A stretch of 51,816 nt of DNA from a virus (taxonomy: Duplodnaviria; Caudoviricetes), in the IMG/VR virus record IMGVR_UViG_3300027908_000080, positions 1 to 51,816 of that record. One strand, 5' to 3'. The notes beneath the pieces are model-generated. The model ran no database searches, was not told the origin of the DNA, and saw only the letters and a list, made by a program, of their open reading frames with translations. Position 1 is the stretch's first letter. Each line of letters starts with the position of its first letter. Positions 11 through 51,247 of the stretch are shown here, piece by piece. The translations under genes were made by a program, and so were the position numbers.

Positions 11-2037
11 CCTGTGTCGTATCCGTCTATGTATTCGTCACCGGTTGCAATATCGCTCAAAAAACCACCGGATATTGTGCTCCAAAACATTCCCATCGCC
101 AAACCTTCACTGCCAGTGAATTGCAATGGCTGAAGTCTTATTTCCGATGTTGAAGCAGACGAGGCAGTTCCGCCAAGGACTTTTAATACGTTTGGAGCAG
201 CCGTTGCAACATAGCTGGATATTGAATTGGTCACTACAACACCTGAACCAGCCCAATTATTCGTCAAAACATTCGGCACGATGTTCGCGTAGGGGACGAC
301 GCCTGTTGTTATCGTTGTGTATCCGACCTGAAAAACATTCGCTCCAGTCGCCGGAATTGGATACAACATTACTAGGAAACAATCATTTGTCCCAATCGTC
401 ATCGTAATTGCGTTGCTTACAATCGTATTATGCGGTGGCGCAAATGTCGTGTAAGTCTCCGTGATGTCTCCATTCCAGGCGTCCTGCTCAAGATATTGCT
501 GGTTGTTTGTCCCCATCCAACCCGACAAAGAACCATTGAAAACATTCGTGGAATAATTTGTGTTGACGAGCGGAACGGTCACAGTTTCAATAAGGTTCGT
601 GCTGTAATTATGAACCAGTAACGCAGAACTACCGTCCGATAATGGCTCAATTCCAACGTCCACGTTCGTTCCGAACCTGTTTGTGCCTCCATTGTAAAAT
701 GACAGCGGAGCAAGCCATATTATGTTGTTGTATGCGGGGTCTGTCTGAATTTTCAAACAGGCGGCATTGGTCAACGAAGTTCCTCTCGTGCCCCAAAAAT
801 CCCAGGCATCTCCGATTATGAACGGACTATGAGCCAAAGCCCAAAGCGACATTTGCTGTCTGCCTTGAACCGTATCAAAAACATTTGCACTGGAAAACCA
901 ACCTTGCATCACGTTAAGAAATGGGTGGCGATTGGCATTCCAAAATCCTGCCAAATTTTGAGACAAAACAAAATGATTTATGAATCCGTCCAGAAACGAA
1001 TTTGCCGCCAACCATTCCATGTCCGCATTCAGGTAATCACAATCTGAAACTTCCCAAGGGAAAAAACGTCCGGGGTTTAAATTGGAATTTACTGGCAGAC
1101 CATTTACGGGGTCAGTTCCGGCAATGTTTGATGGAAAGGCATAGACGTAATCTACGTTGGTCGAAGCTTGGTCAACCAGCGTGAATGAAATTGACGGAAG
1201 AATTTTTCGTGCCCAATAAGAGCAATTTTCCATGTTTGCTCGAACTACAGGATCTCCACCCGGATATGCACCCGTGTTTTCAGCAAAAACAAGCCCGTCA
1301 ATTTTCCATGAGGCGAATAGAGACATATCGTTTGAGAAATCAACGGAAGCTATTGGCGTGTTGCTGAAAATTGGAACGATTGGGGAAACCAAATTTGTTC
1401 CTCCAGTTCCATTCCCGCCAATTTCGCCGTAGAACAAATATGCTTTGAATCCATTTGTGTGAAGTCTCGCTATCACTGATGCGACACCGTTTGGAAACTG
1501 GTTGGTCGTGTAGGTAAGTTGCCCGTTAGGCAGCCGTCCATAATTCCAACCTGTGTCAATAAGAACCACGTTGTATCCGTAGTTGTAAAGGCCGCTTCCA
1601 ATTAAATTTGTGGCGATTTGAAGGACGTGCATCTCGCTTGAATAGCTGTTGTTGCCGCCAGTATTGTATGGGTAATAAGTGTCCACACCGCACCATGGAA
1701 CATTTTTTAGTGACTGCGAAATATTCGCCTCCGTTCGTGGTGAAGTGAATGTGTTGCCGACAAACACATTACTAGCACTAAAACTATTACCGGCATTAGG
1801 TGCAGTCACAACGCCGGTGAAGTTTAATGCCCTAGCATCATTAGTCCCTGCTGCACTTCCCAAAGAAGTAACTATTGAACCTGTCCCACTTCCAGTAATT
1901 GCACCAGTTAAATTGGTAGCCCCACTTCCTCCACCACCTCCAGAAGTTCCAGGATTAGCACTAATAGTGCCATTAACCAATCCAGCACCCTTAGAAGTCA
2001 CGCAACTAAGTATTAGTATAACTAGAAATCTTTTCAT
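1..2037 (-). CDS. 5' part of an origin-spanning 748-aa protein: signal peptide, Gly/Thr linker, GH27 (alpha-galactosidase-like) TIM barrel and beta-sandwich; putative receptor-binding or decoration protein
   Basis: Manual translation from ATG 2037 (overlapping the TGA of the upstream gene) is open to base 1: MKRFLVILILSC..., GYNVVLIDTGW, QFPNGV..LHTNGFKAYLFY, FASWKIDG, QMSLWALAHSPFIIG, LTNAACLKIQTDP, EPLSDGSSALLVHN are colinear with GH27 motifs. Confidence 0.8.
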   Translation of the reverse strand, partial: MKRFLVILILSCVTSKGAGLVNGTISANPGTSGGGGGSGATNLTGAITGSGTGSIVTSLGSAAGTNDARALNFTGVVTAPNAGNSFSASNVFVGNTFTSPRTEANISQSLKNVPWCGVDTYYPYNTGGNNSYSSEMHVLQIATNLIGSGLYNYGYNVVLIDTGWNYGRLPNGQLTYTTNQFPNGVASVIARLHTNGFKAYLFYGEIGGNGTGGTNLVSPIVPIFSNTPIASVDFSNDMSLFASWKIDGLVFAENTGAYPGGDPVVRANMENCSYWARKILPSISFTLVDQASTNVDYVYAFPSNIAGTDPVNGLPVNSNLNPGRFFPWEVSDCDYLNADMEWLAANSFLDGFINHFVLSQNLAGFWNANRHPFLNVMQGWFSSANVFDTVQGRQQMSLWALAHSPFIIGDAWDFWGTRGTSLTNAACLKIQTDPAYNNIIWLAPLSFYNGGTNRFGTNVDVGIEPLSDGSSALLVHNYSTNLIETVTVPLVNTNYSTNVFNGSLSGWMGTNNQQYLEQDAWNGDITETYTTFAPPHNTIVSNAITMTIGTNDCFLVMLYPIPATGANVFQVGYTTITTGVVPYANIVPNVLTNNWAGSGVVVTNSISSYVATAAPNVLKVLGGTASSASTSEIRLQPLQFTGSEGLAMGMFWSTISGGFLSDIATGDEYIDGYDTGHAI

Positions 2038-2417
2038 CACAATATACTACCTTGCCCTGAAGCATTATCATTCCTCTTTAGGAGTGTAATAGCAATAGTA
2101 GTTCCGCCTCTTGAATACATAGATAGTCTCTGTCCACAGTTTGAAGCATCTAATTGCTGCCCTGAACCAAATCCATCAGTATTAGTGGATGATGGCTTAG
2201 AAAGAATACCATTAAAGTTTACTGGTGAACAATCAGAGCCAAAAGAATAGTATGTATCGTTAGCTCCTACATTCTGAACATATCTCCCCGCTAATTCACC
2301 TACAAATGCAGTAGCATTAGGTAAAACATCTTTAGCAGTCGAATCTACTAATACAACTGGTTCAGAAGGAATATTAACTACATTCTTCTCTACTGAATTT
2401 GCAACTCTTAGTGGCAT
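2037..2417 (-). CDS. Hypothetical virion protein
   Basis: 126-aa ORF in the structural arm, translationally coupled to the next gene. Confidence 0.6.
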   Translation of the reverse strand: MPLRVANSVEKNVVNIPSEPVVLVDSTAKDVLPNATAFVGELAGRYVQNVGANDTYYSFGSDCSPVNFNGILSKPSSTNTDGFGSGQQLDASNCGQRLSMYSRGGTTIAITLLKRNDNASGQGSIL

Positions 2418-2459
2418 AAATAAAGTGGGAGTATAGAGTGTTAAGTTCTATACTCCCAT
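2418..2459 (-). terminator. Intrinsic terminator downstream of the capsid and following gene
   Basis: Inverted repeat TGGGAGTATAGA / TCTATACTCCCA followed on the minus strand by CTTTATTT. Confidence 0.65.
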
Positions 2460-2471
2460 TAGTTTAGTTGA

Positions 2472-2966
2472 TTAGTGATATGTTACAGTAACAGTAGCAA
2501 TACCAAGAGAGGTATTAGTAAACCAAATTCCTTGTCGGAAATAATAGTTTACTTGGTCATACCTACTAGAGGTTGATGCAAGTGTAGCAACTCCAATAAC
2601 TTGATTATAGTTATTGGTAGTTGCTGGAACTAGATTGTTAGTCTGGTCATACAATGCAATATTAGTAGTAGCAGTAGCCACTCCATAATAGTTAGTTGTT
2701 AATGTAATCCAATTAGTAGCAACACTAAGTGTATTAGAGTATGCTGGAGTAATATATGACAACTTATTAGTTGGACTGTCGATAAATAACCCACTAACAT
2801 TAGTTGTATTTGCAGCAATAACTATTTGATTAACAGTTGCCAAGTTATTAATAGCAAGAATTTGACCCATTGTATTAGGTCCAACTACAGTGCTAACAGA
2901 ATTAGCAAATGCTGAACTTGCAAGACCAATGCCCAGAAGGGCAAGTATAGTATATTTACGAATCAT
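2472..2966 (-). CDS. Signal-peptide, TN-rich protein directly after the major capsid gene (possible capsid decoration)
   Basis: MIRKYTILALLGIGLASSAFA-N, a classic Sec signal with AxA site; many TN dipeptides; gene position. Confidence 0.6.
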   Translation of the reverse strand: MIRKYTILALLGIGLASSAFANSVSTVVGPNTMGQILAINNLATVNQIVIAANTTNVSGLFIDSPTNKLSYITPAYSNTLSVATNWITLTTNYYGVATATTNIALYDQTNNLVPATTNNYNQVIGVATLASTSSRYDQVNYYFRQGIWFTNTSLGIATVTVTYH

Positions 2967-2989: not shown

Positions 2990-4324
2990 TTATACAGAAG
3001 CAACTGCTGGACGTGAACGAGCAATAATCATAGGGAAGGCGAAACGTCTTTCTGTAACTATAGCTCCATGGGTTAGTTGAGATTTAAGTTGTAAATTCTC
3101 ACCGAAATCATTCATTTCAATTGTTCCATCAGAGTTAGTAATAAGTAGTTGGTCAGTTAGACGAACTTCACCATTCCACCTTAGAGAATAGAATTTCTCT
3201 CCAGACATATTCTTAGTGGCAAACTCTTTAGGAGGAGGGCCAACTTTAAGTGTTTTAATGAAGTTATCTCCAAGTAGCCATGCAATAGAATATGGAGCAG
3301 ATACTAGAGATGTGTAATATGGATTAGGTTTCCACTTATTGTCTACAGGGTCAAATATTTCAGGGTCAATTGGAAATCCAGCAGCCCACAAAGTATTACC
3401 TGCACCATCAAGAATAGCAGCAGACGAGAAACGAATAGGATACTTTTTAATCTTACAAGTAATTGTTCCAAACAAAGAACCTTTGAAGTCATTAAACAAT
3501 AAATCAAGGTTCACAGTTTTAAGCATACCTTGAACACCATTAACTCCATTAACATCAGGGTCAAATGTAAAGTTAAACCAATCTTCAGAACCACAGAACA
3601 AAGCATAACGACCTTTCAAACCCTCATTATCCTTTGGCATATTCTTACTGCCATTAAATGAAGGCGCACCAAGGTCATCTTGAAGATTCATAATTGCGCG
3701 ATAAACGTCACGAATACGCAAAGATTGAATAGCTCCTGTATTACCACCAGTTCCTTGTGTAACTCCAATGAGCCACGCAGCAGTCTTAGACCCAGCAGCA
3801 TTAAGAGCTATATTACCATAAGCTGTAGGTGCACCACCAACTAATCCTGTGCCACAAAGATAAACATAGTTAGCTGCAAACCACATGATAGTTTCAATAA
3901 ACTGATTATTAGATACTGCAATTTGCTTAACAATATCATCAGAATTGAACTTAATATATTTATCCCAGAAAACTTGGAAAGAAGGAATAAAGTTAAATAC
4001 GAATGAACCATACTTGTGTTTATAAAGAATAGCTTGTTCATTACTTTCAGTAACCTGATAAATATCTTTATTAGATGCTGTAGTGATAGGATTAGGGAAA
4101 AAGAATGAACGGCCAACAGGTGAACGCTGTGGAGTAACAGCCTCCATCACTGAACCCATATTCTCTTGCCACGGAATAGAACCATACATTTGGTCAAATT
4201 CATTCCAGTTTGAATACTGTTGAATCTCGTTATGAACCAAATAGAAAGGAAGTTGTGCGAATAAATTATTCGCCTGAATAACTGCTGGACTAAATTGTCC
4301 TGGAAGGTTATAAAAACTAGGCAT
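2990..4324 (-). CDS. Major capsid protein (probable start MPSFYN at 4324, 444 aa)
   Basis: Size, position after portal and scaffold, own promoter and downstream terminator. Confidence 0.7.
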   Translation of the reverse strand: MPSFYNLPGQFSPAVIQANNLFAQLPFYLVHNEIQQYSNWNEFDQMYGSIPWQENMGSVMEAVTPQRSPVGRSFFFPNPITTASNKDIYQVTESNEQAILYKHKYGSFVFNFIPSFQVFWDKYIKFNSDDIVKQIAVSNNQFIETIMWFAANYVYLCGTGLVGGAPTAYGNIALNAAGSKTAAWLIGVTQGTGGNTGAIQSLRIRDVYRAIMNLQDDLGAPSFNGSKNMPKDNEGLKGRYALFCGSEDWFNFTFDPDVNGVNGVQGMLKTVNLDLLFNDFKGSLFGTITCKIKKYPIRFSSAAILDGAGNTLWAAGFPIDPEIFDPVDNKWKPNPYYTSLVSAPYSIAWLLGDNFIKTLKVGPPPKEFATKNMSGEKFYSLRWNGEVRLTDQLLITNSDGTIEMNDFGENLQLKSQLTHGAIVTERRFAFPMIIARSRPAVASV

Positions 4325-4463
4325 AATTAAATTAATTGTTATTTGTTGACTTACACTCAATAACAAGTTATTCGTAACTTGCAACCGAGTTGATGCCCTT
4401 CAACAAACTTTAGTAAGCAATTAACTCTATATGCCCTTATAGACTTCTAGTAGCGAGATACTG

Positions 4464-4482
4464 TAAGCAAGAATCATGCCAA
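4464..4482 (-). promoter_or_regulatory. Sigma54 (-24/-12) promoter for the capsid operon
   Basis: TTGGCATGATTCTTGCTTA on the minus strand, GG-N10-GC, intergenic, ~140 bp upstream of the capsid ATG. Confidence 0.85.
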
Positions 4483-11916: not shown

Positions 11917-11935
11917 GTAGCATTTTTCATGCCAA
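11917..11935 (-). promoter_or_regulatory. Sigma54 promoter heading the late (packaging/structural) arm
   Basis: TTGGCATGAAAAATGCTAC on the minus strand; 16-bp core identical to the site at 23938. Confidence 0.85.
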
Positions 11936-12692: not shown

Positions 12693-12710
12693 CTGGCATA
12701 AAAACTGCAA
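12693..12710 (+). promoter_or_regulatory. Sigma54 promoter (early 2)
   Basis: CTGGCATAAAAACTGCAA. Confidence 0.75.
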
Positions 12711-12746: not shown

Positions 12747-12764
12747 TTGGCATACCGGATGCTA
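12747..12764 (+). promoter_or_regulatory. Sigma54 promoter (early 3)
   Basis: TTGGCATACCGGATGCTA; the expected start site coincides with the beginning of a GC-rich structured tract. Confidence 0.8.
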
Positions 12765-14877: not shown

Positions 14878-14896
14878 TTGGCACAAAACTTGCTTA
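14878..14896 (+). promoter_or_regulatory. Sigma54 promoter, consensus match
   Basis: TTGGCACAAAACTTGCTTA matches TGGCAC-N5-TTGCW exactly; intergenic. Confidence 0.9.
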
Positions 14897-16403: not shown

Positions 16404-16422
16404 ATGGCACACAAAATGCTAT
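16404..16422 (+). promoter_or_regulatory. Sigma54 promoter
   Basis: ATGGCACACAAAATGCTAT, intergenic, upstream of the 16534 gene. Confidence 0.85.
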
Positions 16423-29188: not shown

Positions 29189-29413
29189 GTGGGACGCTTA
29201 TTAATTATGGATACTTTTGACGGACTTATAATTATGGTACTCATTACCGGACTGACATTCCTAACAATAGGAGCTACAGTTTCTTATGAACATACACAAA
29301 TAGTTAAGCACGGGTTTGCTCACTGGGTAGTTGAAACTAATGGTGATACTAGATTTGAATGGGATACTGAGGACTATTATTTAAATCATTTGACTAATGA
29401 TAATGCGCAGTAA
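29189..29413 (+). CDS. Small membrane protein
   Basis: One hydrophobic helix followed by G.AHW....G...FEW. Confidence 0.5.
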   Translation: MGRLLIMDTFDGLIIMVLITGLTFLTIGATVSYEHTQIVKHGFAHWVVETNGDTRFEWDTEDYYLNHLTNDNAQ

Positions 29414-31010
29414 ACCAAAATTTTCTTATTGTGGACTCTCTATAGTCTTAAGTAACCCATCACGTTTTGATAAATTAAGACTTCTTAGTGCGAATGGTGG
29501 TCAAATGTTTGATAATTTTTGTTTGCGCCCAGAAATAAATTCATTAATGTGCGACGTTCGATTAGCTGAAGATAACTCACCATTTTTACCTGATACTAAA
29601 TGTATCTTACTACTTGGCCAACGAGCAATGGAAAAATATTTACCAGAAACTTTTGGTTCACAACTATCTAATATACGAGGGGGATTATATGAATATAAAG
29701 GCATACCAACTATCTGTTCTTTCTTACCACAGGACGCTGCTGATTACAAGAATTATGAGGCGTCTCTTAATCCTTTGTCCTCGGATTATACTCCTGACTC
29801 TGAAATATCAGATGGAGATGAGGAAGATGAGGGTGATGTTAAAGCGTTTGGAAGAACAAAGAGAAGCAACTATGCGTTTTGGCTTAGGGCAGATGTTAGG
29901 AAGTGTAAGTCCATGCTTTCTGGACGGATGGAGTCACTACAACATATTCCCAATTATAAAGTATATCCATCTAGTGAGGAAGCAATAGATACATTAACTA
30001 ATACCAAGAATGAATTTTTATACTTTGATATTGAGAGCGATAGGGAAGAACAGAATCTTCAATGCTTCTCTTTTGCTTTTGGAGATAAAGAATTGAAACT
30101 ATGGTCACCAATTTATGCTGTTCCAATACTAGATTGGAATTATAAGGTGGCATATTCATCGTTCCATCTTATACTGCGCGCTTTGTCTATTGCGATTCGT
30201 GACAATATTACTGTTGCTCACAATGGTTCTAACTTCGATTTCTTTGTCCTATCACATAAATACAAAATACCAATCGCGCGAACATATGATACGATGATAG
30301 CAATGCATAGATGCTTCCCTGATATTGAGAAGTCTCTCGGGCATTGTGTTAGCTATTGGACGAATGAAAAATTCCACAAAGATGAAGATTCAGTAGCCTA
30401 TAGAACCCATAACCAAATGATGGATAGATTAAAGTATAATATGAAAGATGTCTACACTATGTATCTAGTCCATCAAGCCATAACTAAATATGCACGAACT
30501 ATTCCAGGTCTTGAAGATAGTATTAGAGATGCTATGCGTTGTATCAACCCTTATCTTACTAGCACTTTGCAAGGCATCAAAGTAGATGAGAAGAAGGTAG
30601 AATTAATGGTGAATGAGAATGATAGATTGATGTTTCAGTATAACCGAATGATAGAACTCTTGATAGGTGAAGAAGGAATGAAGAATTGTAGAGCAGAAAT
30701 TAAAGGAAAGGCTAAGTTAATAGCAGGTTCTAACACTCAATGTTGCGAATACTTCCATGAACTAATGAATTATCCAGTAGTTGCACGTTCTTCTAAAACA
30801 CAGAAGCCATCCTTAGGAAAGAAAGCATTATACAAACTTGCTCTTAAACACGAGAATCCAGTAATAACACTTATATGTGCATATAGAGCCACACAAAAAG
30901 AAACTTCAAGACTTAGATTTATACCATGGATTAATACATCAAATGAAGATACTAATAAAATACAATTTAATGGAATTAGACCCAACGCAGAGTGCCTTAT
31001 TACCTCCTAA
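29397..31010 (+). CDS. polA: DNA polymerase A, N-terminal part: degenerate UDG-like domain, 3'-5' exonuclease and thumb
   Basis: ILLLGQRA..IRG..PTICSFLPQ (UDG-like), YFDIES, AHNGSNFD, YDTM, YNMKD, QGIKVD, AYR. Confidence 0.8.
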   Translation: MIMRSKPKFSYCGLSIVLSNPSRFDKLRLLSANGGQMFDNFCLRPEINSLMCDVRLAEDNSPFLPDTKCILLLGQRAMEKYLPETFGSQLSNIRGGLYEYKGIPTICSFLPQDAADYKNYEASLNPLSSDYTPDSEISDGDEEDEGDVKAFGRTKRSNYAFWLRADVRKCKSMLSGRMESLQHIPNYKVYPSSEEAIDTLTNTKNEFLYFDIESDREEQNLQCFSFAFGDKELKLWSPIYAVPILDWNYKVAYSSFHLILRALSIAIRDNITVAHNGSNFDFFVLSHKYKIPIARTYDTMIAMHRCFPDIEKSLGHCVSYWTNEKFHKDEDSVAYRTHNQMMDRLKYNMKDVYTMYLVHQAITKYARTIPGLEDSIRDAMRCINPYLTSTLQGIKVDEKKVELMVNENDRLMFQYNRMIELLIGEEGMKNCRAEIKGKAKLIAGSNTQCCEYFHELMNYPVVARSSKTQKPSLGKKALYKLALKHENPVITLICAYRATQKETSRLRFIPWINTSNEDTNKIQFNGIRPNAECLITS

Positions 31011-31149
31011 CTTTGCTGGCAAAGTTTATAAGGTTGTAAATACTTTTGTTGACCATTACGAGATAGAAGATAGAAAAGGTTTCTTTTGGAATGTTCCTTT
31101 TTATCTGGCCTCAAAACATCATCCAAGAGTTAGACATAATAGGATATGA
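30943..31149 (+). CDS. Small ORF inserted between the two polymerase halves
   Basis: 68 aa from ATG 30943, overlapping both neighbours. Confidence 0.5.
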   Translation: MKILIKYNLMELDPTQSALLPPNFAGKVYKVVNTFVDHYEIEDRKGFFWNVPFYLASKHHPRVRHNRI

Positions 31150-32207
31150 TTAGGGACTCCTCATCTTGGGTAATATCAGGAACTAAAACTTTTAGATTAG
31201 CTTCAAGAAAAGTTCTTAAAATTTATGGTGGTAATTTAGCTAATATAGAAAAATCAATGCGCGAGATATATGTTCCTGATGATGGTAAAATATTTGTCCA
31301 ATGTGATTGTGCGGGTGCAGAAGCTTTAGTAGTAGCATACCTCTGTGAGGCTGGACAGTTTAGACAGTTGTTCCTTCATGGAGTTAAGCCCCATGTATTT
31401 GTAGCACTACATATTTTTAAAGACATATGGGCTAAAAAGATGAAATCAATAGTAGGTGATATGCCATTCAATATAGATAATATTATCAAACTCCCAATAG
31501 CATCTTTAAAGTCTGCACCATTTTGGAAAGAGCTTGACTCTCTTATCAAAGATTCTGATAACTGGTCATTAGACCAACGCTATTATTATCTAGCAAAGCA
31601 AACGTGTCACAGCGCGAACTATGGAATTACTGCTCCAACATTTAGAATGAATATCCTAGAAAAATCTGGAGGAAAAATTAACATTTCTAAAGAAGATTCA
31701 GAACGATTTCTATTAACTTACCATTCATTGTTTCCTGAAATTCAAGAATGGCATCGTCGTTTGAAACAACAAGTAGACCTATCAAAGGTTCTCTATAACT
31801 TACATGGTCATCCATATACTATAACTTCATACACAATTCTTGAATCTCAGTGGAAAGAGTTAATAGCTTGGATTCCCCAAAGCACGGTAGGCATGATAAC
31901 TAATATTGCCTATGCTAACTATCAAGATGAAATTGAAGCGCGGCACTTGGATTTTGATTTACTAGTTAACTGCCATGATAGCTACCTTTTGCAGTGTCCT
32001 ATAGATGAAACCAATGAGTGTATTAAGTTGGCGAAGCAGTTTATGGAACAGGAGTTTGAGTCTCCAGTAGATGGAGTTAAATTTAGGATGAAGTCTGAAG
32101 TTCAAGTAGGTATGAACTGGCGACCTAGATATGAGAAAAATAATTTAGTTATAAATCCACTAGGATTAAAGGAGTTTAATTATGCTCATAAAGATAAGAT
32201 AGTTTGA
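31146..32207 (+). CDS. polA: DNA polymerase A, C-terminal palm/fingers part
   Basis: GTKTFRLAS, NLANI, motif A DCAGAE, motif B AKQTCHSANYG, PQS, motif C NCHDS. Confidence 0.9.
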   Translation: MIRDSSSWVISGTKTFRLASRKVLKIYGGNLANIEKSMREIYVPDDGKIFVQCDCAGAEALVVAYLCEAGQFRQLFLHGVKPHVFVALHIFKDIWAKKMKSIVGDMPFNIDNIIKLPIASLKSAPFWKELDSLIKDSDNWSLDQRYYYLAKQTCHSANYGITAPTFRMNILEKSGGKINISKEDSERFLLTYHSLFPEIQEWHRRLKQQVDLSKVLYNLHGHPYTITSYTILESQWKELIAWIPQSTVGMITNIAYANYQDEIEARHLDFDLLVNCHDSYLLQCPIDETNECIKLAKQFMEQEFESPVDGVKFRMKSEVQVGMNWRPRYEKNNLVINPLGLKEFNYAHKDKIV

Positions 32208-33581: not shown

Positions 33582-33970
33582 CAATAGAACAACAAATGGT
33601 AAGAGAGTTTATGCTTAAAGCAGGCCAAGAGTGTCCTGTCTTTTGTTCACATGAACCGACAGAAGACATTAAAAATCTAAGATATGAATTGATAAGAGAG
33701 GAATTAGAGGAATTTGATAAAGCTCAGTGTGATTGTGATAGGATTGGAGTAGCTGATGCAATAGGAGATTTATTAGTTGTAGTGTTAGGTGCGGCAGTAT
33801 CGTATGGATTTGATATTCAGCCAATATTTGACGAGATAATGCGTTCTAATATGTCAAAATTTATTGATGGTTATAAAAGAGAGGATGGTAAATGGATGAA
33901 AGGTAAGTCATGGACACCACCCAATCTTGAACCAATTATCAAGGAACAACAGAACTCTTTGCTTCGTTAG
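33578..33970 (+). CDS. MazG-like / PRA-PH nucleoside triphosphate pyrophosphohydrolase
   Basis: LIREELEE, DAIGDLLVV, RSNMSK, REDGK..K...W.PP. Confidence 0.88.
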   Translation: MTIEQQMVREFMLKAGQECPVFCSHEPTEDIKNLRYELIREELEEFDKAQCDCDRIGVADAIGDLLVVVLGAAVSYGFDIQPIFDEIMRSNMSKFIDGYKREDGKWMKGKSWTPPNLEPIIKEQQNSLLR

Positions 33971-36900
33971 TTATCTTGTGCTTGAAATAATCTGACAACT
34001 CTGCCTGTGCAGCTTCAGAACCTTCTTCTCTTTGAAGATAACCAAGATAGCGCATGAATTGTAAAGGCATTTTTTCAAGAGAGGGAAAAGTGCTGTATTG
34101 ATTTTCTTTCAATGCCTGTAACTTACTCATCATAACGTCAGGATTGCTTCTATATGTTTGAATAGTATTCTGAATAAGTTGTGGCAACTCTTTCATAGCA
34201 GTTGGTAAGTCTTGTTCATATTTGAACTTCTTTTGTTCCAAATTCATATAAGGATTACTTCCTTCATCAATATCATTATATGGCAATCCTTCTACCATAT
34301 CGAATCGTCGTAGTTGTCCAACTTTGTCAGATAATTCTTTCTTTTCTGCTGGTAAACCAGTAATAAGTCCAGAATTAATGCCTTGATTAATAGCAATCCG
34401 TCCCATCTGAAAGTTAGTAGATAGTGTGTGCATAGCTACAACCTTAGCTAAGTCAACCCAATTAACATTTGGGTCATTGGCAATAGCTTCTGAGACGTAA
34501 TGCAGAGTAGATGCTGTGTCAGTTACTACTTCATCCAGAGGAAAAGTCGCGCCTTGTGGGTTATTTTTATATGCAAAGTCAAATGGATATTTAGCAATTT
34601 GAGATAGCAATCCTCCGAATCCTGCATACTGCATTGCTGCAATCATGTTATATCCTATCAATCCTTTATTACCTTCTAATCCTCTATCGCTACTAGCTAT
34701 CTCCTGTAGAGAAGGTATTGGTGATTTCTTTCCTTGAATATCTTGACGTAACTCTTTAATCAAGTAGCCACCAATAGTTGCTCCAAACACACCAGCTAAT
34801 AAAGGTTTAAGGTCTCCCCTTAAAGCTGGCTCATAAGTATCTTTCATAAAGTTATTAGTCTGAGCAATAGACCAATGAGCAAGAGAAAAGAATCCTGAGA
34901 ACTCAGAATCGTTTAGCATCCAAGCTGGTAATGAGCGTATATCACCTGTTCCATGAATATAGTTAGCAGAACGAGATGCTAATTGTTGCATTTCTTGTTC
35001 TGAATATTGTTTACCTCTGGCATATGTGGGGTCTAATCTTCTTATAAATAGTTGTGAAGTAATATCTCCAGCATTTGCTCGCGCGACTTTGGACGGTATG
35101 ATTACTTCTGCCATTGATTGGACTAATCCTGCACCTACTTTAGTGGTTATGTCATTGAGTGTAGATACGCGACGAATAATTCTGGCCAAAGATTGCATTC
35201 TTTCAGCGGCAGTAGATGAACCAGAAATCATTTGAGAGGCTGAGCGAGCAGTTAGTTTAACTACTCCATTTTCTACTGCGTGTTGGTAACCAGATTTTAT
35301 GTTCATTATACCATTAACTAATGCTTTAATTAAGACAGAAGGATTGGTAGTTTGAATCATTTCCTTTACAGTATTAGATACTACTTTATGAACTTCAAGT
35401 GGGGGTCCAGCTATAAAGCCAGAGGATACTAAAGATGATATAGACGACTCATTATATTCAGAAGGATTCCTTGCTTCACCTCTCCAATGATTAAGTCCAG
35501 CCTTAACTGCTGGATTATTAGCTATTGAACCTTCCTTATTTGGTGGAACTTCATTACCCCAAGCATCCTTTGTTTGTCCTAAAGAAGACAATACTTTAGG
35601 GTCTTTTTCCATAAACTCATAGTGAGAAGCATCAATAGCTGCTCTGTCGAAGTATCGTTCTAAGTTCCTAACAGGGTCAACTTCTCGAAATGAAGGTGGA
35701 AGTGGAGAACCTTGTGCCTTACGGTGAGCATTGAAGTAATCTTGGTGTGATATATCAGAGTTCTTAATTGAACCTTGTAAGGCTTTCTTAAAGTTATCAA
35801 TTCGTTCTTTAGAAGCCTGTTCATTCATTCCTAAAGTTTTAGTATTGTAGTCATGGAACTCTTTGTCCAATTTATCTATAGCTGCATGGTCAGTGTTATT
35901 TCTATAGACCTCATTAATCTTTTGATTGGCCATTCCAGGGAAATAAGTAGGGTCTTGTTTAAGATTACGCTGAACATAGATATTATTCCCTTTCTTATCA
36001 GTAATAGTTTGTGTCACAGGTTCACCTATTGCAAGGCGATATTTACCTGATTCATCGAGTTTAGCTCTTGCTAAGTTGTAGAAGGCGCGCTGAGCAGCAT
36101 TAGTAAGCATAGTAGTTGCTGGCTTACGAGTTGCCATTTCAGTATTAAAAGTATCCATCAATTTCTTACGGTCGAAAGATGATAAGTGTTCTCCAGCTTG
36201 AACAATCATATTTTTCCATTTACCTTTAAGCTCTGTCTCTTTATCAACTGCCATTTGCATATGGTCAGCTAAGTATTTGGCAGACTGTTTAGGTATATCA
36301 CGAACCTTATCTATTACTGCACGAGTAATTAGGCCGAATCGACCCATATATTTATCGGGAGGTAAGTTGAGTTCGGAAGGAGTTTTGGATTGTTCTTCTT
36401 TGGGAACTTTAACTTCTTGAGAGACTTCATCACTCTTGCCAGTTTGTTTGGGTGGGGCAGATACTTTGTCTCTTATTTGGGATGTGCCAGGATATTTCTT
36501 ATCAAGATAGTCATTGAGCCAACCCTTAAACTTTTCAAGTGCTATCTCTGGGGTTTTACTATTACCAGTAGCTGGACGAGAACCCCCATTTTTAGTTTCA
36601 TAGTAATACTTACCGTTACCATAAGTATCTTCTTTATCTTCCTTGAGAACATGTCTATTAAATTGTTCTTCATATTCAGATTGCCTAGCCTTTTGATATT
36701 CTAATCTCTTCCGCATTATATCTGGCCTCTCCTGCTTAATAAGTTCACCACTACTTCTAAGCACTCTATCAAGCATACTTCCAGCTTTCGGACTTAGTCC
36801 TAATAACTTACGAACAGCATCTACAATCTTCTGCATTACTGTTCTGCCATCTGTTGTCTTAATACCATCTAACACTCTCTGAAATTGTGGGTCTTTAAGG

Positions 36901-39269
36901 GCTTGAGCAATAAATTCATCTAAATTGCCCATTGCATATTTGGTGGTTGAACCTAGCCCAATATTAAGTTGCTGAGCCTTATCTGGGTCTCCAGCAACAC
37001 CTTTGAAAGAGTAATTAAACGAACCATCTTTATTTTGTATTCCAGAATCTTCATAGCCAAACAATTTATTGTGAAGTCCTAAATGTTTCGCTGTCTCAAA
37101 ATAGCTATGAATCAAATCCTTAACATGAGGATTAGAACCAGTTTTCAAATAACTATTAAGTCTATTATAGTGCTCTGCACCTTGACCAGCAAAATGTGGT
37201 ATTTTTTTACTGGTCAAAGAATGTATTGCTTCTTCTAATACTACTCTTGAGTCTCCAGCACTACCAGTTCCAATATTAACTCTATCAGTTATTGGGTCGT
37301 AGTGGGAGCGAAGTCCTTGCATCATCTTTAGAGTCTTTGGATGCAGCCATGTATTATCTTTATCAAGAGAAGGGTCATGATTCCACTTAACACCTAATGA
37401 CTTAGTATCTCCATTCTCATATAGCTCTTTAGCTAATGGAGCAAGTTCATGGTTAGGAGTATTAGCCAATCCATGTAATACTGAACCTGTTGTAGCTTTG
37501 CCAGACAATATATGTTCCTGTAAACTCAATGGATTTAGTATCCTATTCTCAGGAACTTCTGGTGGAGGTAGCCCTTTATTCCTATTCTTAATCTCTTCTA
37601 ACTCCTGATTTATCTTTTGATACTCTGGAGAGGCCATTATCTCCTCAGGGTCTTTAGAAGAGCGGACAAGTTCTTCGCGCCGGAAATTAAGTTCAGTGTA
37701 ACGGTTGTAGTCTGAGAGGGGAGAATTGACGGTATGTATATCCTGTTTTCTTTTTCCATTTAGACCAGAATAATGTTTTAGATTTATATCATTGTAAATA
37801 GCATAGTCTTGTAGAGCTTCTTTTTGTCTGTTAGTAAGTTGTTCAAATGGTTTATTTGAGTCAGACTCAAGAGTATTTGTTTCTTTATTATAAACAACTC
37901 TAAGATTTCCTTGTGATTCATAATCTTTCGCAGCTGGTCTGTCAGAATAAGCAGAATATGATTCTTCATAGTTACCACCCTGACTATTCAAATCTTTTAC
38001 AGCATATAAATCATGCCCATATGAATTGTTAACAGCAGACATTTTGCCTTCTGGTGATACCCAAAAACCATAGGGAATAGACTTTTTTGGCGGACTATTT
38101 ACAACTTGCCCCGACTCCATTAACTCTTTCTGTAATTCCTCTTTTTCGGCGTCACTGAGTTCGGCAGATTTTTGTATTCCACTGGACTCTCCTTCTGCCA
38201 CTGGTGTAGTAGATTCGGGTGTTTGACTGCGAATAGCTTCCACTGTGCTTTTGACTTGATTGGCATATTGTTCTGGTAGTGTTAATGTTTTTCCTTCATC
38301 AGTTATTATTTGTGTATTACCTGTTTCCGGTTCTGCTCCTATCACATGGCCTTGAACTTTAGTTCCGTCAGGCATAGTAGCATGAACTTCGTCGCCATGA
38401 TATAAACCTTTCTGAAGTTCTTCTAAATCTTTGTCAGGCTGTATAATTTGTGGCTTAACAATTCTATCTGGCTGTTGTTCAGTTTCTCCTAGTATTTGTT
38501 TGCCGGCCTGTTCATCAGGTAATAACTGTTGATTGCCATTATTAACCTCTGGTGCTGGTTCATCAGGAGTTCTTCCGTGTCCTATTAGTCTATTTGCCCA
38601 TTCAGCTTGTTTAGAAAACAAAGCGCCACCAATGGCTTGAGAAGCTAGTTCAGAACCAGTTGGTAACTCACCAGTCGTGGCATAGTTAATGCCAGAATTA
38701 ATGGCAGGATTGATGGCACTTTGAAGTAGTGTAGGAGCTATTGCAGCACGGTCTATGGCTGCTTGACCTTCTGAACCAGATAAACCAATAATTCCTCTAA
38801 TAGAACGTAGAGCATTAAGAGATGGTTTACCTCCAGAAGCAAGAGCAGATAATCCTATATCAGTAGCTAAGGCAGTTTTAGGATTTTGTTCTGATGCTTG
38901 TTGAGCAATATCTTGCTGTCGATTATAATAGTCAGTAGGCTCAATAGCCTGTTGAGCTTTCTGTCCAACATAACCTCCACCTAAAGCTCCGGCCGTTCCA
39001 CCTATTATTGCTCCTAATGCTTCTGGAATACCTGTTAAGTCAGCCCCAGGAACTAATGCTCCAAGCGCTGCACCAGATAAAGCCATTCCACCAATAGAAC
39101 CAGCACCACCACCCAATATACCACCAGCATGAGCTTTAGCTATATCACCTATAGTTCCTAATGTTCCAATAGGTTGTTGAGACTGTTGTGGAGGATTATA
39201 GTTAGCTATATCCTCATCAGTCCAACCTTGGGACTTAAGAAATGGTATATCTTGAGAAGGAACTGGCAT
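33939..39269 (-). CDS. Large internal virion/ejection protein (polyvalent-protein-like)
   Basis: 1776 aa; Gly/Ala hydrophobic N-terminus, zincin-like LEEAIH...DEFIAQAL, last gene of the structural arm. Confidence 0.7.
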   Translation of the reverse strand: MPVPSQDIPFLKSQGWTDEDIANYNPPQQSQQPIGTLGTIGDIAKAHAGGILGGGAGSIGGMALSGAALGALVPGADLTGIPEALGAIIGGTAGALGGGYVGQKAQQAIEPTDYYNRQQDIAQQASEQNPKTALATDIGLSALASGGKPSLNALRSIRGIIGLSGSEGQAAIDRAAIAPTLLQSAINPAINSGINYATTGELPTGSELASQAIGGALFSKQAEWANRLIGHGRTPDEPAPEVNNGNQQLLPDEQAGKQILGETEQQPDRIVKPQIIQPDKDLEELQKGLYHGDEVHATMPDGTKVQGHVIGAEPETGNTQIITDEGKTLTLPEQYANQVKSTVEAIRSQTPESTTPVAEGESSGIQKSAELSDAEKEELQKELMESGQVVNSPPKKSIPYGFWVSPEGKMSAVNNSYGHDLYAVKDLNSQGGNYEESYSAYSDRPAAKDYESQGNLRVVYNKETNTLESDSNKPFEQLTNRQKEALQDYAIYNDINLKHYSGLNGKRKQDIHTVNSPLSDYNRYTELNFRREELVRSSKDPEEIMASPEYQKINQELEEIKNRNKGLPPPEVPENRILNPLSLQEHILSGKATTGSVLHGLANTPNHELAPLAKELYENGDTKSLGVKWNHDPSLDKDNTWLHPKTLKMMQGLRSHYDPITDRVNIGTGSAGDSRVVLEEAIHSLTSKKIPHFAGQGAEHYNRLNSYLKTGSNPHVKDLIHSYFETAKHLGLHNKLFGYEDSGIQNKDGSFNYSFKGVAGDPDKAQQLNIGLGSTTKYAMGNLDEFIAQALKDPQFQRVLDGIKTTDGRTVMQKIVDAVRKLLGLSPKAGSMLDRVLRSSGELIKQERPDIMRKRLEYQKARQSEYEEQFNRHVLKEDKEDTYGNGKYYYETKNGGSRPATGNSKTPEIALEKFKGWLNDYLDKKYPGTSQIRDKVSAPPKQTGKSDEVSQEVKVPKEEQSKTPSELNLPPDKYMGRFGLITRAVIDKVRDIPKQSAKYLADHMQMAVDKETELKGKWKNMIVQAGEHLSSFDRKKLMDTFNTEMATRKPATTMLTNAAQRAFYNLARAKLDESGKYRLAIGEPVTQTITDKKGNNIYVQRNLKQDPTYFPGMANQKINEVYRNNTDHAAIDKLDKEFHDYNTKTLGMNEQASKERIDNFKKALQGSIKNSDISHQDYFNAHRKAQGSPLPPSFREVDPVRNLERYFDRAAIDASHYEFMEKDPKVLSSLGQTKDAWGNEVPPNKEGSIANNPAVKAGLNHWRGEARNPSEYNESSISSLVSSGFIAGPPLEVHKVVSNTVKEMIQTTNPSVLIKALVNGIMNIKSGYQHAVENGVVKLTARSASQMISGSSTAAERMQSLARIIRRVSTLNDITTKVGAGLVQSMAEVIIPSKVARANAGDITSQLFIRRLDPTYARGKQYSEQEMQQLASRSANYIHGTGDIRSLPAWMLNDSEFSGFFSLAHWSIAQTNNFMKDTYEPALRGDLKPLLAGVFGATIGGYLIKELRQDIQGKKSPIPSLQEIASSDRGLEGNKGLIGYNMIAAMQYAGFGGLLSQIAKYPFDFAYKNNPQGATFPLDEVVTDTASTLHYVSEAIANDPNVNWVDLAKVVAMHTLSTNFQMGRIAINQGINSGLITGLPAEKKELSDKVGQLRRFDMVEGLPYNDIDEGSNPYMNLEQKKFKYEQDLPTAMKELPQLIQNTIQTYRSNPDVMMSKLQALKENQYSTFPSLEKMPLQFMRYLGYLQREEGSEAAQAELSDYFKHKITNEAKSSVVP

Positions 39270-46165: not shown

Positions 46166-46819
46166 TTAAGGATTAAGGATTGGTTGAGATGGGACTGGCC
46201 ATGTTAGAGGTAAAAGAAAGACGGATGATACTGTTGTTACAGTTGGGGGAGGGTTTGTCGCTCCCATGCCTACTGCCCAACCTGTGGCTAAATCTGGTGT
46301 AGCTACATTGCTAGAACTTGTATAATAAGATAAAGCTGTGCCAATAATCCATGAGCCAAATCCACCAGTCCAGTTTATAGTATTTATTCCACTCTGATAT
46401 AAATTTTTACCATTGAACTGCCCATTTAATGTATAAGTTCCATTAATTGATGGAGTTCCTGCACCACTTACAATAATACTACCACTAAGTGCAGCGTCTT
46501 TAAATGATGTAACAATAGGGTCACTGTTTACTAACGTATTATCTACTCCATATCTGTAATCGATAGCTTGTAGAACAGAAGTAGTAAACTGTAGTGGAGT
46601 TAATTGTCCCACTGTTACTAAATCTGTTGACCATACTTCAAACCTAAAGTTTTTAGCTATCTTTTGACCAGAATACAAAGGTATATTTTCAAACACCACT
46701 TCTCCTACACCTTTCCACATAGCGTATCGGAACATATTATTGTTCCCATCTACCCAACTAATAGTTAGCATATAGTTAGGCTGGAAATTGGCAGGTAGGT
46801 TTGTTAGATTAGTTATCAC
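46166..46819 (-). CDS. Virion structural protein
   Basis: 217 aa; IIVSGAGTPSINGTY...W module. Confidence 0.55.
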   Translation of the reverse strand: MITNLTNLPANFQPNYMLTISWVDGNNNMFRYAMWKGVGEVVFENIPLYSGQKIAKNFRFEVWSTDLVTVGQLTPLQFTTSVLQAIDYRYGVDNTLVNSDPIVTSFKDAALSGSIIVSGAGTPSINGTYTLNGQFNGKNLYQSGINTINWTGGFGSWIIGTALSYYTSSSNVATPDLATGWAVGMGATNPPPTVTTVSSVFLLPLTWPVPSQPILNP

Positions 46820-47373
46820 CTTGTTATAGTAATTGTAAATGTTTGAGGATTAGCAACTCCTAAAGCAGCAATAAAAAATATAGCTGCTGACTGTCCAGGG
46901 GTGTTCTGAGAACACTCTATTTGAAAAAAGCCGTTGCCTGAGCCATCAGTGGTATATCCAACATTACCTACACCTTGCTGAACTACGTTAAAAGTTGTAT
47001 TATTAGGACTAGCTGGTGAGTTATTCCAAGATGGAGATATAGATATAGCTGATATAGTGCTTCCCCAATTACCAGTTCCAGTTATAGTAAATAGTATTGT
47101 TGGAACTGATATAGATACAGCATTATCAATTCCTGGAACTGTGGCAATATCAACATTGATTGAGTTAGTGCTAGTCTGATATACACTAGAGTCTAATGTA
47201 AAAGTTAAAGTTCCTGATGGAGAACCACCATTATTACCTAAGTTATTAGTTAATGAAAGATAGGAAGGAGTTATTTGGCTATTTATTTGTTGGTCAATAA
47301 ATGGCAAATCATTCATAGTCATAGATTGACTATAGCATGACAAGGAACTTAATAGTATTACTAAGTATTTCAT
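46816..47373 (-). CDS. Signal-peptide, beta-rich protein (probable start 47373)
   Basis: MKYLVILLSSLSCYSQ; ATGA overlap. Confidence 0.55.
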   Translation of the reverse strand: MKYLVILLSSLSCYSQSMTMNDLPFIDQQINSQITPSYLSLTNNLGNNGGSPSGTLTFTLDSSVYQTSTNSINVDIATVPGIDNAVSISVPTILFTITGTGNWGSTISAISISPSWNNSPASPNNTTFNVVQQGVGNVGYTTDGSGNGFFQIECSQNTPGQSAAIFFIAALGVANPQTFTITITR

Positions 47374-48005
47374 TGAAACGTAGTTGTGCAATAATTAGTT
47401 AATACTCCACTATTTACTAAATAACTAACAATTCCCCACTTACCAGCAAGTATAGATAGTAAGTTAGTTGAATTTACTCCTGCTCTACCAACTGTCATAC
47501 TAAGGGTTATAGTATTAGTAGATGAATTGCTAACTGACAATGATGCCCATGCTCCAGTCCCAGTTATATTAGTTATTCCAACATTATTAGTAGAAATGTA
47601 TTTCCAATAAGAATTATTAATAGATAAACTATTAGTATTAGAAGGGAAAGTTGACCATGTGTATAGATTAGTATTGATATAATTTATTACATTAGTGGTT
47701 ACTTGATTTATTATATTAGTAGTTATAGTATTAGTAACATAAGTATAAACATTAGTGGTAATTATATTTATGAGATTCGTAGTTAATAATTGACTCGTAA
47801 AATTAGTATCATTGGCCAAAAAATTCTCAAATTGTCCTACTGTTATATTATAGTTGCCAACACCAGTGTTAGAGAGTAGTAATAGTAGACTAGGTGCAGG
47901 ATTAGGATTATTTGGAAATAATGAAACTGGAGTAATATTAAGACCTGCCCCTATAACTAAGAGTAAAATACAACCACAACTCGCTCCTACTAAATACTTT
48001 TTCAT
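47370..48005 (-). CDS. Signal-peptide, extremely TN-rich protein
   Basis: MKKYLVGASCGCILLLVIGAG; repeated TTN/VTN/NTN units. Confidence 0.6.
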   Translation of the reverse strand: MKKYLVGASCGCILLLVIGAGLNITPVSLFPNNPNPAPSLLLLLSNTGVGNYNITVGQFENFLANDTNFTSQLLTTNLINIITTNVYTYVTNTITTNIINQVTTNVINYINTNLYTWSTFPSNTNSLSINNSYWKYISTNNVGITNITGTGAWASLSVSNSSTNTITLSMTVGRAGVNSTNLLSILAGKWGIVSYLVNSGVLTNYCTTTFQ

Positions 48006-48313
48006 ATTAACATACCTCCACCTTCTGCTCCAATGGCAGTTCCACTAAATGGTTGAGGCCCAGTGTTACTAAGTGGAACAACAGTAGCTATTTGTTTCAA
48101 AGTAAAATTATGTGTTCCTTCAAATGTAAATGCTGCAACTATATCTGAGTATCCTTGCCAATTCACATTAACACTAAAGGCTGGCAAAGTTATGAAAGTT
48201 CCGCATCTATCTAACTTTGTAACAGGGTTTTCATCTAACCATCTTTGCAGTTGCCGAGGAACAGTTAATGCTCCTGAGTCATTAGATGGAGGTGGCACAA
48301 TTGGGGGAGGCAT
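48002..48313 (-). CDS. Hypothetical virion protein (probable start MPPP at 48313)
   Basis: ORF with AT-rich start context. Confidence 0.5.
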   Translation of the reverse strand: MPPPIVPPPSNDSGALTVPRQLQRWLDENPVTKLDRCGTFITLPAFSVNVNWQGYSDIVAAFTFEGTHNFTLKQIATVVPLSNTGPQPFSGTAIGAEGGGMLI

Positions 48314-48317
48314 AATA

Positions 48318-48752
48318 TTAACTCCTATCTTCCTTAAACGCGTGCCATCCACCAATTGTCACACCTTCGTATATGGCATCCATCTGTGCTTTCTCAAATA
48401 ATGTTGGCTGCGGTTTTATAGACTGCATAGCTTCTAGTAGAAGGTCATTAGACTCTTGTTCGTTGAGATTGGCAATCATTATATTGCATTGACCATCAAT
48501 AACTTGTAAAGTATTCTGGTATGCAGAATCATGTAGCTCTGCTGGCAAACTATACCATCCAGTAGGTATTAAGAATAGTAGTGCACCCCACAACTCCTTA
48601 GGCACAGATGCAAAATCTGTAGATGCTCCTATTGGGATTCTGTAATGCATACCACTTTTAGAAATATAATCTACAGGCTTGATGAGTTTACATACACTCA
48701 AATCAAGCGAGTAGATTATCTCTACATCTACAGTTGAGAATCCTGACTCCAT
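48318..48752 (-). CDS. DUF1353 family protein
   Basis: IPIGASTDFASVP, AELHDSAY, Y.GV..GG..AF. Confidence 0.85.
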   Translation of the reverse strand: MESGFSTVDVEIIYSLDLSVCKLIKPVDYISKSGMHYRIPIGASTDFASVPKELWGALLFLIPTGWYSLPAELHDSAYQNTLQVIDGQCNIMIANLNEQESNDLLLEAMQSIKPQPTLFEKAQMDAIYEGVTIGGWHAFKEDRS

Positions 48753-49682: not shown

Positions 49683-49844
49683 TTAATGATGTATAGGTTG
49701 TCCAAATACTACCCATCCAAGTAAAACAAGAAGGATGAATAAAAGTAAGTCTCCACCAAACCCGCGAAGGTTGGTGCGATTAGTATAAAGTCCGAATACT
49801 AGCCACATTAGAATTAGTATCCAATAGCACAGTGAGAATGTCAT
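49683..49844 (-). CDS. Small two-TM membrane protein (53 aa)
   Basis: MTFSLCYWILILMWLVFG...LLLFILLVLLGWVVFGQPIHH. Confidence 0.65.
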   Translation of the reverse strand: MTFSLCYWILILMWLVFGLYTNRTNLRGFGGDLLLFILLVLLGWVVFGQPIHH

Positions 49845-51164: not shown

Positions 51165-51247
51165 AGACCATGGTTGAAATCGTGGTTGCAGCCACTAGCA
51201 ATCAACGCCAGCACCAAGAGGCACAGGATGGCGAAGGTGGGTTTCAT
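51158..51247 (-). CDS. Minimal lipoprotein (29 aa)
   Basis: MKPTFAILCLLVLALIASG-CNHDFNHGLW; lipobox; overlaps both neighbours. Confidence 0.55.
   Translation of the reverse strand: MKPTFAILCLLVLALIASGCNHDFNHGLW

Follow-up and report, generated by a model that had tools for sequence, protein, structure and literature searches.

The 51,816-nucleotide (nt) window analysed here is the complete contig of IMG/VR record IMGVR_UViG_3300027908_000080. It is the genome of an uncultured phage from soil, about 52 kb with a podovirus-like gene set, and it has been taken as a circle because its final 10 nt repeat its first 10. Several of its late genes code for proteins that begin with Sec-type export leaders, and two of them constitute a core pair that is found in every relative: a 164-amino-acid (aa) protein, predicted to be a jelly roll, whose gene (2472-2966, minus strand) lies directly behind a putative capsid gene, and a large modular protein whose gene spans the origin. 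Both products are probably exported to fold in the periplasm, and the reading that we prefer, tentative as it is, has the pair attached to the particle. The set of leader proteins as a whole is read as mixed, with lysis-linked proteins and mobile accessory cargo beside the core pair. What the in silico evidence establishes directly is the leaders, their conservation, the operon, the fold and the domain content.

Export leaders on late proteins

Leaders were scored with a rule-based test that requires a positive net charge in the n-region, then 8-16 uncharged, hydrophobic residues whose mean Kyte-Doolittle value is at least 1.8, and finally either small residues at -3 and -1 or a lipobox. Applied to the 70 greedily called open reading frames (ORFs) of at least 50 aa in the window, it is positive for eight. 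Seven of these are exactly the late-arm proteins for which the original prediction had claimed Sec-type N-termini, namely those of 2472-2966, the origin-spanning gene, 51244-51600, 50829-51164, 49074-49682, 47370-48005 and 46816-47373, and in all seven the N-terminus is basic and hydrophobic, and small residues occupy -3 and -1. The eighth, a polymerase-exonuclease (29397-31010), is a weak hit and probably false. Among controls, 1 of 187 segments starting at an internal methionine and 30 of 1400 shuffled proteins pass, a false rate of about 2%; at the shuffle rate the binomial probability of eight in 70 is 1.3e-4. Leaders recur in related genomes, with 5-8 ORFs flagged among the 59-69 of each of five complete relatives, counts in which some flagged ORFs outside the cluster look false and one true ortholog was missed by the ORF caller. 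Accessory leader proteins have a glutamine after the -3/-1 site in 14 of 38 cases and a lipobox-like cysteine in 11 of 38, both of which would be host envelope-sorting features. We read the seven proteins as probable genuine Sec substrates that are made late.

The 164-amino-acid jelly-roll protein

The leader of the 164-aa protein, here called SP-164, occupies residues 1-21 (MIRKYTILALLGIGLASSAFA, with NS directly after the predicted cleavage site) and precedes a mature domain with nine conserved Thr-Asn (TN) pairs. There are ten close homologues, and a profile search of 1.84 billion representatives extends the family to at least 463 clusters (E<=1e-3), 250 of them with E<=1e-10, with lengths of 140-194 aa, about 165, among the 150 matches listed. 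The leader passes the test in 146 of the 150 aligned members, the four misses appearing to be truncated at the N-terminus, so that export through Sec, another part of the original prediction, is strongly supported in silico. Its only conserved features are M-K-K, an uncharged core, and the residues A/V/S at -3 and A/G/S at -1; counted by column, A/G/S stands at -1 in 143 of 150 sequences, A/V/S at -3 in 116 of 149 and K or R at position 3 in 141 of 149. Conservation is poor in the hydrophobic core (1.2-2.4 bits per position), which has insertions and deletions and varies in length. Conserved lysines and -3/-1 positions flanking a variable, indel-rich core therefore point to a signal peptide and not to a packed structural helix. 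The residue at +1 in the 150-member family is mostly alanine.

An AlphaFold2 model made from the 150-sequence alignment is an all-beta jelly roll with a predicted local distance difference test score (pLDDT) of 94.1; an earlier run with 10 sequences, at 56.6, was discarded. In an exhaustive structural scan of 48,161 chains the best match to the model is a 114-residue chain from a capsid turret entry of Haloferax tailed virus 1 (HFTV1; Z 9.4, root-mean-square deviation 2.7, 96 residues aligned), and the second is an archaeal-virus jelly roll at Z 8.7. Nucleoplasmins follow at Z 8.2-8.4, then the prophage protein YomS, PirA and spore-appendage subunits at Z 7.9, with carbohydrate-binding modules (CBM36 at Z 7.8 and CBM62 at Z 7.2) and phage capsid-type proteins (the Helicobacter phage KHP40 cement protein at Z 7.7 and a Pam1 capsid chain at Z 7.2) in the same range. 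Eight chains reach Z 8, and values of Z 7-8 are common for unrelated folds. A safe statement is that the protein is modelled as a jelly roll of a type found in lectins and nucleoplasmins as well as in capsid turret and cement proteins.

Other searches yielded little. The protein has no match in PHROGs, Pfam or NCBIfam, Foldseek against BFVD returned only weak, uncharacterised proteins for the model, and a profile search of the family against PDB sequences gave nothing credible. No longer, fused forms of the family were found, which is weak evidence, and a locus search with three divergent single members of the family gave no viral locus. Searches by tblastn with the 164-aa, capsid-like and portal-like proteins found no match among 50,697 phage records. 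A complex prediction for the capsid-like protein with the mature 164-aa protein scored 0.00, a value that, without control runs, is evidence neither way.

A conserved unit with the capsid-like gene

The gene for the 164-aa protein begins 23 nt past the stop codon of the putative major capsid gene (2990-4324, minus strand; 444 aa from the ATG at 4324), which is so named from position and conservation, and in 16 of 16 related loci an ortholog comes directly after the capsid-like gene. It is a core gene, present in single copy and of uniform length, unlike typical accessory genes. The 444-aa protein is the best conserved of the phage family, at 60-87% identity; it has no Pfam, PHROG, NCBIfam or tblastn match. 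Its language-model neighbours are all viral clusters, two of them with capsid families in 13% and 37% of their members. A cellulase match in a profile search against PDB sequences (E 2.7e-4) is weak and was not taken as meaningful.

Upstream, at 4467-4481 on the minus strand and 142 nt before the capsid-like ATG, is the sigma-54-type promoter motif TGGCATGATTCTTGC, and in 12 of 12 related loci such a motif precedes the capsid-like gene by 142-211 nt. The leader of the gene carries, on the same strand, two small hairpins (4390-4403 and 4428-4441) with variable compensating stems and an invariant AGGGCA loop. Two hairpins with this loop occur in the window against 0.055 expected, none elsewhere in it, and 21 copies are present in the capsid-like gene leaders of 12 related genomes, where the stems differ and stay complementary; possibly they are an operator for an RNA-binding regulator of capsid-gene expression. 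At the other end of the unit a terminator-like hairpin followed by TTTATTT (2424-2460, minus strand; 16 pairs by scan) lies 11 nt past the stop codon of the 164-aa gene. In 11 of 12 related loci, two of the 12 being identical at this place, the ortholog too is followed by a strong hairpin (-18 to -32 kcal/mol), unrelated in sequence.

The capsid-like and 164-aa genes would then be a conserved two-gene unit whose members are probably co-expressed. Since promoter, shared unit and terminator are all in place, the 164-aa protein is probably made in capsid-like amounts, and this fits either a stoichiometric capsid partner or an envelope factor that is needed in bulk.

A large modular leader protein

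Beyond the terminator-like hairpin is a conserved, leaderless 126-aa neighbour (2037-2417, minus strand; ortholog in 15 of 16 loci), and past it every relative encodes a large protein with a leader, 244-1214 aa long. The counterpart in the window is the origin-spanning gene on the minus strand. Positions 1-2037 encode the N-terminal 679 aa, with the leader, the segment GLVNGTIS, a glycine-rich linker and a GH27-like alpha-galactosidase domain, and positions 51597-51816, of which the last 10 nt repeat positions 1-10, encode the C-terminal end. Read through the origin the protein is 749 aa and starts VMKRFLVILILSC. The Pfam family Melibiase_2 matches residues 133-215 only, with 30.3 bits against a cut-off of 23 (E 3.3e-7), Melibiase_C is below its cut-off at 18.7 bits, and a language-model search places the protein next to Melibiase_2 clusters (0.91-0.93). 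The C-terminal 40 aa share 55% identity with the end of a 406-aa leader protein from one of the five relatives, and the lipobox-like cysteine is not conserved in relatives.

All 12 of the large leader proteins compared have the same plan, a leader, a GGLVxGTIS-like segment and a glycine-rich run, and then bodies that are unrelated. Those in relatives include a GDSL esterase, Melibiase_2 with Laminin_G_3 (a concanavalin-like lectin), an endosialidase N-terminal extension and collagen repeats. Judged by this content the large leader proteins would be modular and spike-like, with domains typical of phage spikes and fibres.

Virion or envelope

How the core pair might reach the particle can be set out as follows. 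Both proteins would be secreted and would fold in the periplasm, apart from the DNA-filled heads until lysis brings them together. On the heads they would then build an outer layer of turrets or fibres, the jelly roll serving as base and the enzyme as head, by which glycans of the host surface are bound or cut. Leader proteins encoded beside holin-like genes (barrel-like here, lipoproteins in relatives) would serve lysis, and the small TN-rich leader proteins would be mobile accessory cargo. The original prediction of decoration or fibre subunits added at lysis falls short of proof, and is plausible because of the jelly-roll matches, the conserved unit with the capsid gene, the spike-type domains and leader proteins annotated from mass spectrometry (MS) in Cellulophaga phage phi18:3. 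A bolder version, which we regard as speculative, is that a large clade of soil phages makes two-compartment particles, in which cytoplasmic heads and tails receive, at lysis, a periplasm-folded outer turret made of a jelly-roll base, supplied in capsid-like amounts, and swappable glycan-cutting or fibre heads docked by a short N-terminal strand, the TN-rich folds being adapted to this route.

The closest architectural analogue is the turret of HFTV1 (PDB 8qpg; base gp30, head gp31), which also provides the best match of the 164-aa model. The part of the account available to us (bioRxiv 10.1101/2024.12.09.627619) describes a small base protein on capsid hexamers and, as head, a protein that carries a putative deacetylase beside a glycan-binding module, and in that part there is no mention of leaders on the turret proteins. 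The likeness, if it holds, would be that of a small base with a glycan-active head to a small jelly roll with a large glycosidase, esterase or lectin protein; it differs in that HFTV1 is an archaeal virus, sequence identity is 12% and the matched chain could be either turret protein of the entry. The KHP40 cement protein (PDB 7dou) and chain H of the capsid of cyanophage Pam1 (PDB 7eel) are small all-beta proteins of similar fold, with Z values (7.7 and 7.2) in the range of common arrangements. The decoration and cement proteins known to us are leaderless, and are made and bound in the cytoplasm; the 164-aa protein departs from them by its conserved leader.

A precedent of another sort comes from Cellulophaga phages. 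In phi18:3 (KC821620) gp085-087 are annotated 'structural protein' from experimental tandem mass spectrometry (MS/MS) proteomics and have Sec-type leaders followed by glutamine, and the phi46:3 homologues gp079-083 (KC821622) are likewise leader-bearing, with RefSeq labels of pectate lyase or tail fibre. They are large, late proteins of 547-785 aa (for instance, leader MKKTIYILSILLLTISGVSA and then Q), and their genes immediately precede those of small membrane proteins and a glycosyl hydrolase, as leader genes adjoin membrane genes here. In contrast to the window, the capsid gene of phi18:3 and phi46:3 is not followed by a small leader-bearing protein, TN is not enriched in most of the leader proteins, and they have no sequence similarity to those of the window. 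Leader-bearing structural genes of Cellulophaga phages (KC821620 1892-7584; KC821622 344-8946) are shared, with 92-96% nucleotide identity, by phages whose genomes range from 53 to 76 kb, and such a module therefore appears to move between phage types.

Several points weigh against placing the core pair on the particle. Attachment, above all, is something that we infer, and the test for leaders is a heuristic of our own design and not SignalP. Foldseek found nothing for the 164-aa model in the PDB at E<=1e-3, and the fold matches that the exhaustive scan did give are middling, with nucleoplasmin, carbohydrate-binding modules, PirA and spore-appendage subunits at Z 7.8-8.4. In the large proteins the conserved stretch behind the leader, about 10 residues, is very short for a virion-docking domain, and the MS record of phi18:3 may include proteins that merely co-purify with envelope debris. 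Of the seven window proteins, five (those of 46816, 47370, 49074, 50829 and 51244) have homologs in none of the five complete relatives, and two sit in an insert that splits a tail gene, which looks like accessory cargo and not architecture. Full-text literature searches surfaced no description of periplasm-matured virion parts in a tailed phage, and we know of no tailed phage that adds virion parts from the periplasm.

The strongest competing explanation, doubtful in our estimate and still to be taken seriously, is that the proteins are exported but never enter the virion, and act on the envelope of the infected cell. The jelly roll would mask a glycan receptor, the glycosidase, esterase and lectin proteins would destroy it and others would aid disruption of the outer membrane. 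The gain would be that progeny are not lost on debris, as with T5 Llp and its action on FhuA, or that release through capsule or matrix is easier. This is the textbook fate of phage leader proteins, which are lysis proteins, exclusion lipoproteins or cargo of the Lom and Bor type. T5 Llp, lambda Lom and Bor, and the spanins likewise have Sec or lipoprotein leaders, some are encoded in late operons, and they act on the envelope and vary between relatives. The hypervariable region just described, the leader genes that adjoin holin-like and peptidase genes, and the carbohydrate-binding modules among the fold matches all fit such a role, and enzyme specificity that varies between relatives is also what receptor destruction predicts. 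The searchable literature describes phage leader proteins as lysis proteins or envelope modifiers, and the available part of a study of Porphyromonas phages reads their Q-rule leader proteins, which share the glutamine after the cleavage site with those here, as envelope modifiers (PMC10367356).

Against an envelope role stand, first, the properties of the 164-aa gene, core, single-copy, of uniform length and tied to a capsid-like gene by a conserved promoter and terminator, second, the collagen repeats and endosialidase N-terminal extension, which are typical of virion fibres and spikes, and third, the phi18:3 leader proteins annotated from MS in the structural proteome. Proteins of the Llp, Lom, Bor and spanin type, and those of the Porphyromonas phages, number one to a few per genome, and none of the exported accessory proteins is a core gene co-transcribed with the capsid gene or has spike-type enzyme or collagen modules. 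Five rumen phages have 0-2 signal peptides each, as far as the accessible portion of that report goes (PMC5723332).

That the N-termini are not export signals at all seems improbable. They would then be helices for assembly or anchoring, such as a bundle that plugs a capsomer pore, or leaders cut by a cytoplasmic protease, and the proteins would be ordinary decoration or fibre proteins assembled in the cytoplasm. The attraction is that two-compartment assembly is not needed. The HFTV1 turret alignment begins at residue 7 of the model, inside the N-terminal helix, and prohead proteases are supposed, in the part of the Porphyromonas phage study available, to cut signal-peptide-like capsid N-termini (PMC10367356). 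A packed helix would, however, keep specific positions, and what the 164-aa family conserves is only what Sec and signal peptidase I need, as the columns given above illustrate. The lipobox-like cysteines and the glutamines after the site in accessory leader proteins, and the presence of a like leader on an outer-membrane-barrel-like protein, also speak for export.

TN dipeptides

The original prediction also held that the signal-positive proteins are biased towards TN, unlike portal, capsid and replication proteins, and this is borne out. With expectation computed from each protein's own composition, the seven leader proteins (1763 aa) have 50 TN against 21.4 expected (2.34-fold, P 9.5e-8), compared with 1.17-fold in non-leader late proteins and 1.07-fold in the plus-strand proteins of the replication arm. 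The reverse dipeptide NT, at 0.89-fold, is not enriched, and TN exceeds twofold in five of the seven, the exceptions being 49074-49682 (1.84) and 46816-47373/47391 (0.83). In the five complete relatives the leader set has 2.2-2.9-fold TN and the rest 0.9-1.15-fold. When the six genomes are pooled no dipeptide of the leader set exceeds its expectation by more than TN does (267 against 103.6, 2.58-fold), and in the other 357 proteins TN is at 1.01-fold; the pooled leader proteins contain few K, E, D and R residues and many T, N, S and G. Across the 150 sequences of the 164-aa family, six of the nine TN pairs have T and N each in at least 123, and all nine have each in at least 104.

It had further been proposed that export serves host glycosylation at TN or NxT-type sites before the proteins join particles, and this is now very unlikely, even though export would give access to periplasmic glycosylation systems. 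NxS/T is at 0.84-fold in the window set, 0.83-fold in the 164-aa family and 1.09-fold pooled over genomes, and no glycosyltransferase family was found among the proteins scanned. TN itself is, to our knowledge, no glycosylation motif. Most of the nine conserved pairs lie inside predicted beta strands or at their ends; the residues after the pairs vary, and most pairs have no x-S/T next. The motif D-[ST]-[AILVMT], which we take to be a Bacteroidetes-type O-glycosylation motif, shows mild enrichment in the leader set, with 39 occurrences where 27.4 are expected (1.42-fold, P 0.02; 1.05-fold in the rest). Because NxS/T is not enriched in any set and the O-glycosylation motif is so only mildly, we read the TN pairs as a probable structural habit of beta-rich exported folds and not as glycosylation sites.

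Other leader proteins, putative lysis genes and a tail-gene insert

Beyond the core pair, five leader proteins are encoded on the minus strand. That of 51244-51600 (118 aa, TN 2.2-fold) is in part homologous to the 834-aa large leader protein of a related locus, L016, and is followed by a 111-aa leader protein, recognized by the leader test, at 50829-51164 (TN 3.7-fold). Three small membrane-helix proteins (50312-50719, 49849-50178 and 49683-49844) come next and resemble a lysis cassette. Adjoining them is a 202-aa leader protein (49074-49682; SIYA followed by Q at the site) whose C-terminus, LMINLCW, has a pattern that suggests an outer-membrane barrel; its positional analogues in relatives end in RF, TF or KRF. 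At the position of the membrane-helix genes relatives carry transmembrane proteins, lipoproteins and papain-type peptidases, and together the membrane proteins, the lipoproteins or barrel-like proteins and the peptidases look like a lysis cassette.

An insert of 1182 nt, an in-frame length, at 46820-48001 splits a tail-module gene at about residue 80. Comparison with the five relatives, in which it is one gene of 195-411 aa, identifies 48002-48355 as the N-terminal piece and 46166-46819 as the C-terminal piece (both minus strand). The insert consists of two leader-protein genes with overlapping start and stop codons: 47370-48005 codes for a 211-aa leader or anchor protein with TTNxxNxx-type repeats (TN 2.5-fold), and 46816-47373/47391 for a 185-aa leader protein (SCYS followed by Q).

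Genome layout and probable sigma-54 control

Late genes occupy one arm of the genome, on the minus strand from 11,900 down across the origin to 33,939, and replication genes and a sigma-54 activator the other. The late arm includes a terminase large subunit, a 633-aa portal-sized protein that has no Pfam, PHROGs or NCBIfam match, and a scaffold-like protein of 410 aa that is rich in Glu and Lys. Calling these proteins portal and capsid rests on gene order, size and conservation. A leaderless tail set is conserved in relatives and comprises a fibre with a conserved N-terminus and a variable C-terminus and proteins of 323, 629, 376, 475 and 1776 aa; since this set is complete, the leader proteins are extras. 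A membrane-containing virion was considered, and is without supporting evidence, the terminase, portal-sized and capsid-like genes being typical of tailed phages. The gene for the 1776-aa protein (33939-39269, minus strand), whose Gly/Ala-rich hydrophobic N-terminal region weakly matches an endolysin PHROG (E 2.9e-4), is followed by those for the 475-aa and 376-aa Gln/Asn/Gly-rich proteins, and by likeness to T7-like phages the three may be read as internal or ejection proteins. A family-A DNA polymerase is divided over two plus-strand ORFs, 29397-31010 with the 3'-5' exonuclease part and 31146-32207 with the polymerase part, and the genes are kept separate in five relatives. No tRNA genes were found in the window.

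The sigma-54 activator (22821-23729, plus strand), a phage-encoded enhancer-binding protein, matches Pfam Sigma54_activat at E 4.1e-51 and is present in five of five complete relatives. Ten TGGCA[CT]-N5-[TAC]TGC motifs occur in the window against 0.235 expected, and seven of them are upstream of same-strand genes: 4467-4481(-), 11920-11934(-), 12694-12708(+), 12748-12762(+), 14879-14893(+), 16405-16419(+) and 23938-23952(+). Four of the seven are in gaps between called ORFs and three over small opposite-strand ORFs. Much of the phage's programme thus seems to depend on host sigma-54; a full-text literature search surfaced no phage described as doing so.

Host

The suggestion of a host among the Verrucomicrobia has not fared well, the sole link being the terminase, whose best tblastn matches are annotated Akkermansia phage terminases (27% identity, E 1e-32). 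Bacteroidota are favoured because of the glutamine after the -3/-1 site in accessory leader proteins (14 of 38, but 2 of 9 in orthologs of the 164-aa protein). The available part of Bochtler et al. (PMC5837995) gives a mean of 71% glutamine at +1 for Bacteroidetes and low values for four other groups, and leaves Verrucomicrobia and Acidobacteria out of the analysis. Our best guess, from the Q pattern, the 35-45% G+C of the window and relatives and the soil source, is a diderm of the Bacteroidota. No Pfam family for the sorting domain of the type IX secretion system matched among 30 window and 35 relative proteins.

A scan of genome contigs turned up a 4.6-kb contig, with a capsid-like gene 58% identical, in a metagenome-assembled genome labelled Terracidiphilus. 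The contig has a G+C content of 41%, that of the genus is much higher, and the link was therefore dismissed as a probable binning accident. Near-identical DNA is present in soil metagenome runs from three studies, some of them possibly the source of the window, and there was no RNA run among the runs with such DNA.

Significance

Assembly of tailed-phage particles is regarded as an entirely cytoplasmic process, and annotation pipelines therefore count a signal peptide against a structural role. Here a core gene that is locked to a capsid-like gene, and whose family has at least 463 clusters, bears a textbook export signal, as do neighbouring spike-like enzymes. The cultured Cellulophaga phages, with leader-bearing structural proteins in their database records, allow either outcome to be tested. 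If the proteins end on the particle, assembly would include an extracytoplasmic step that has gone unrecognised, with consequences for predicting host range, for phage display and engineering and for the interpretation of structural proteomes. Otherwise an exported, lectin-like protein made in abundance would, together with variable glycan enzymes, amount to a widespread late-infection envelope programme.

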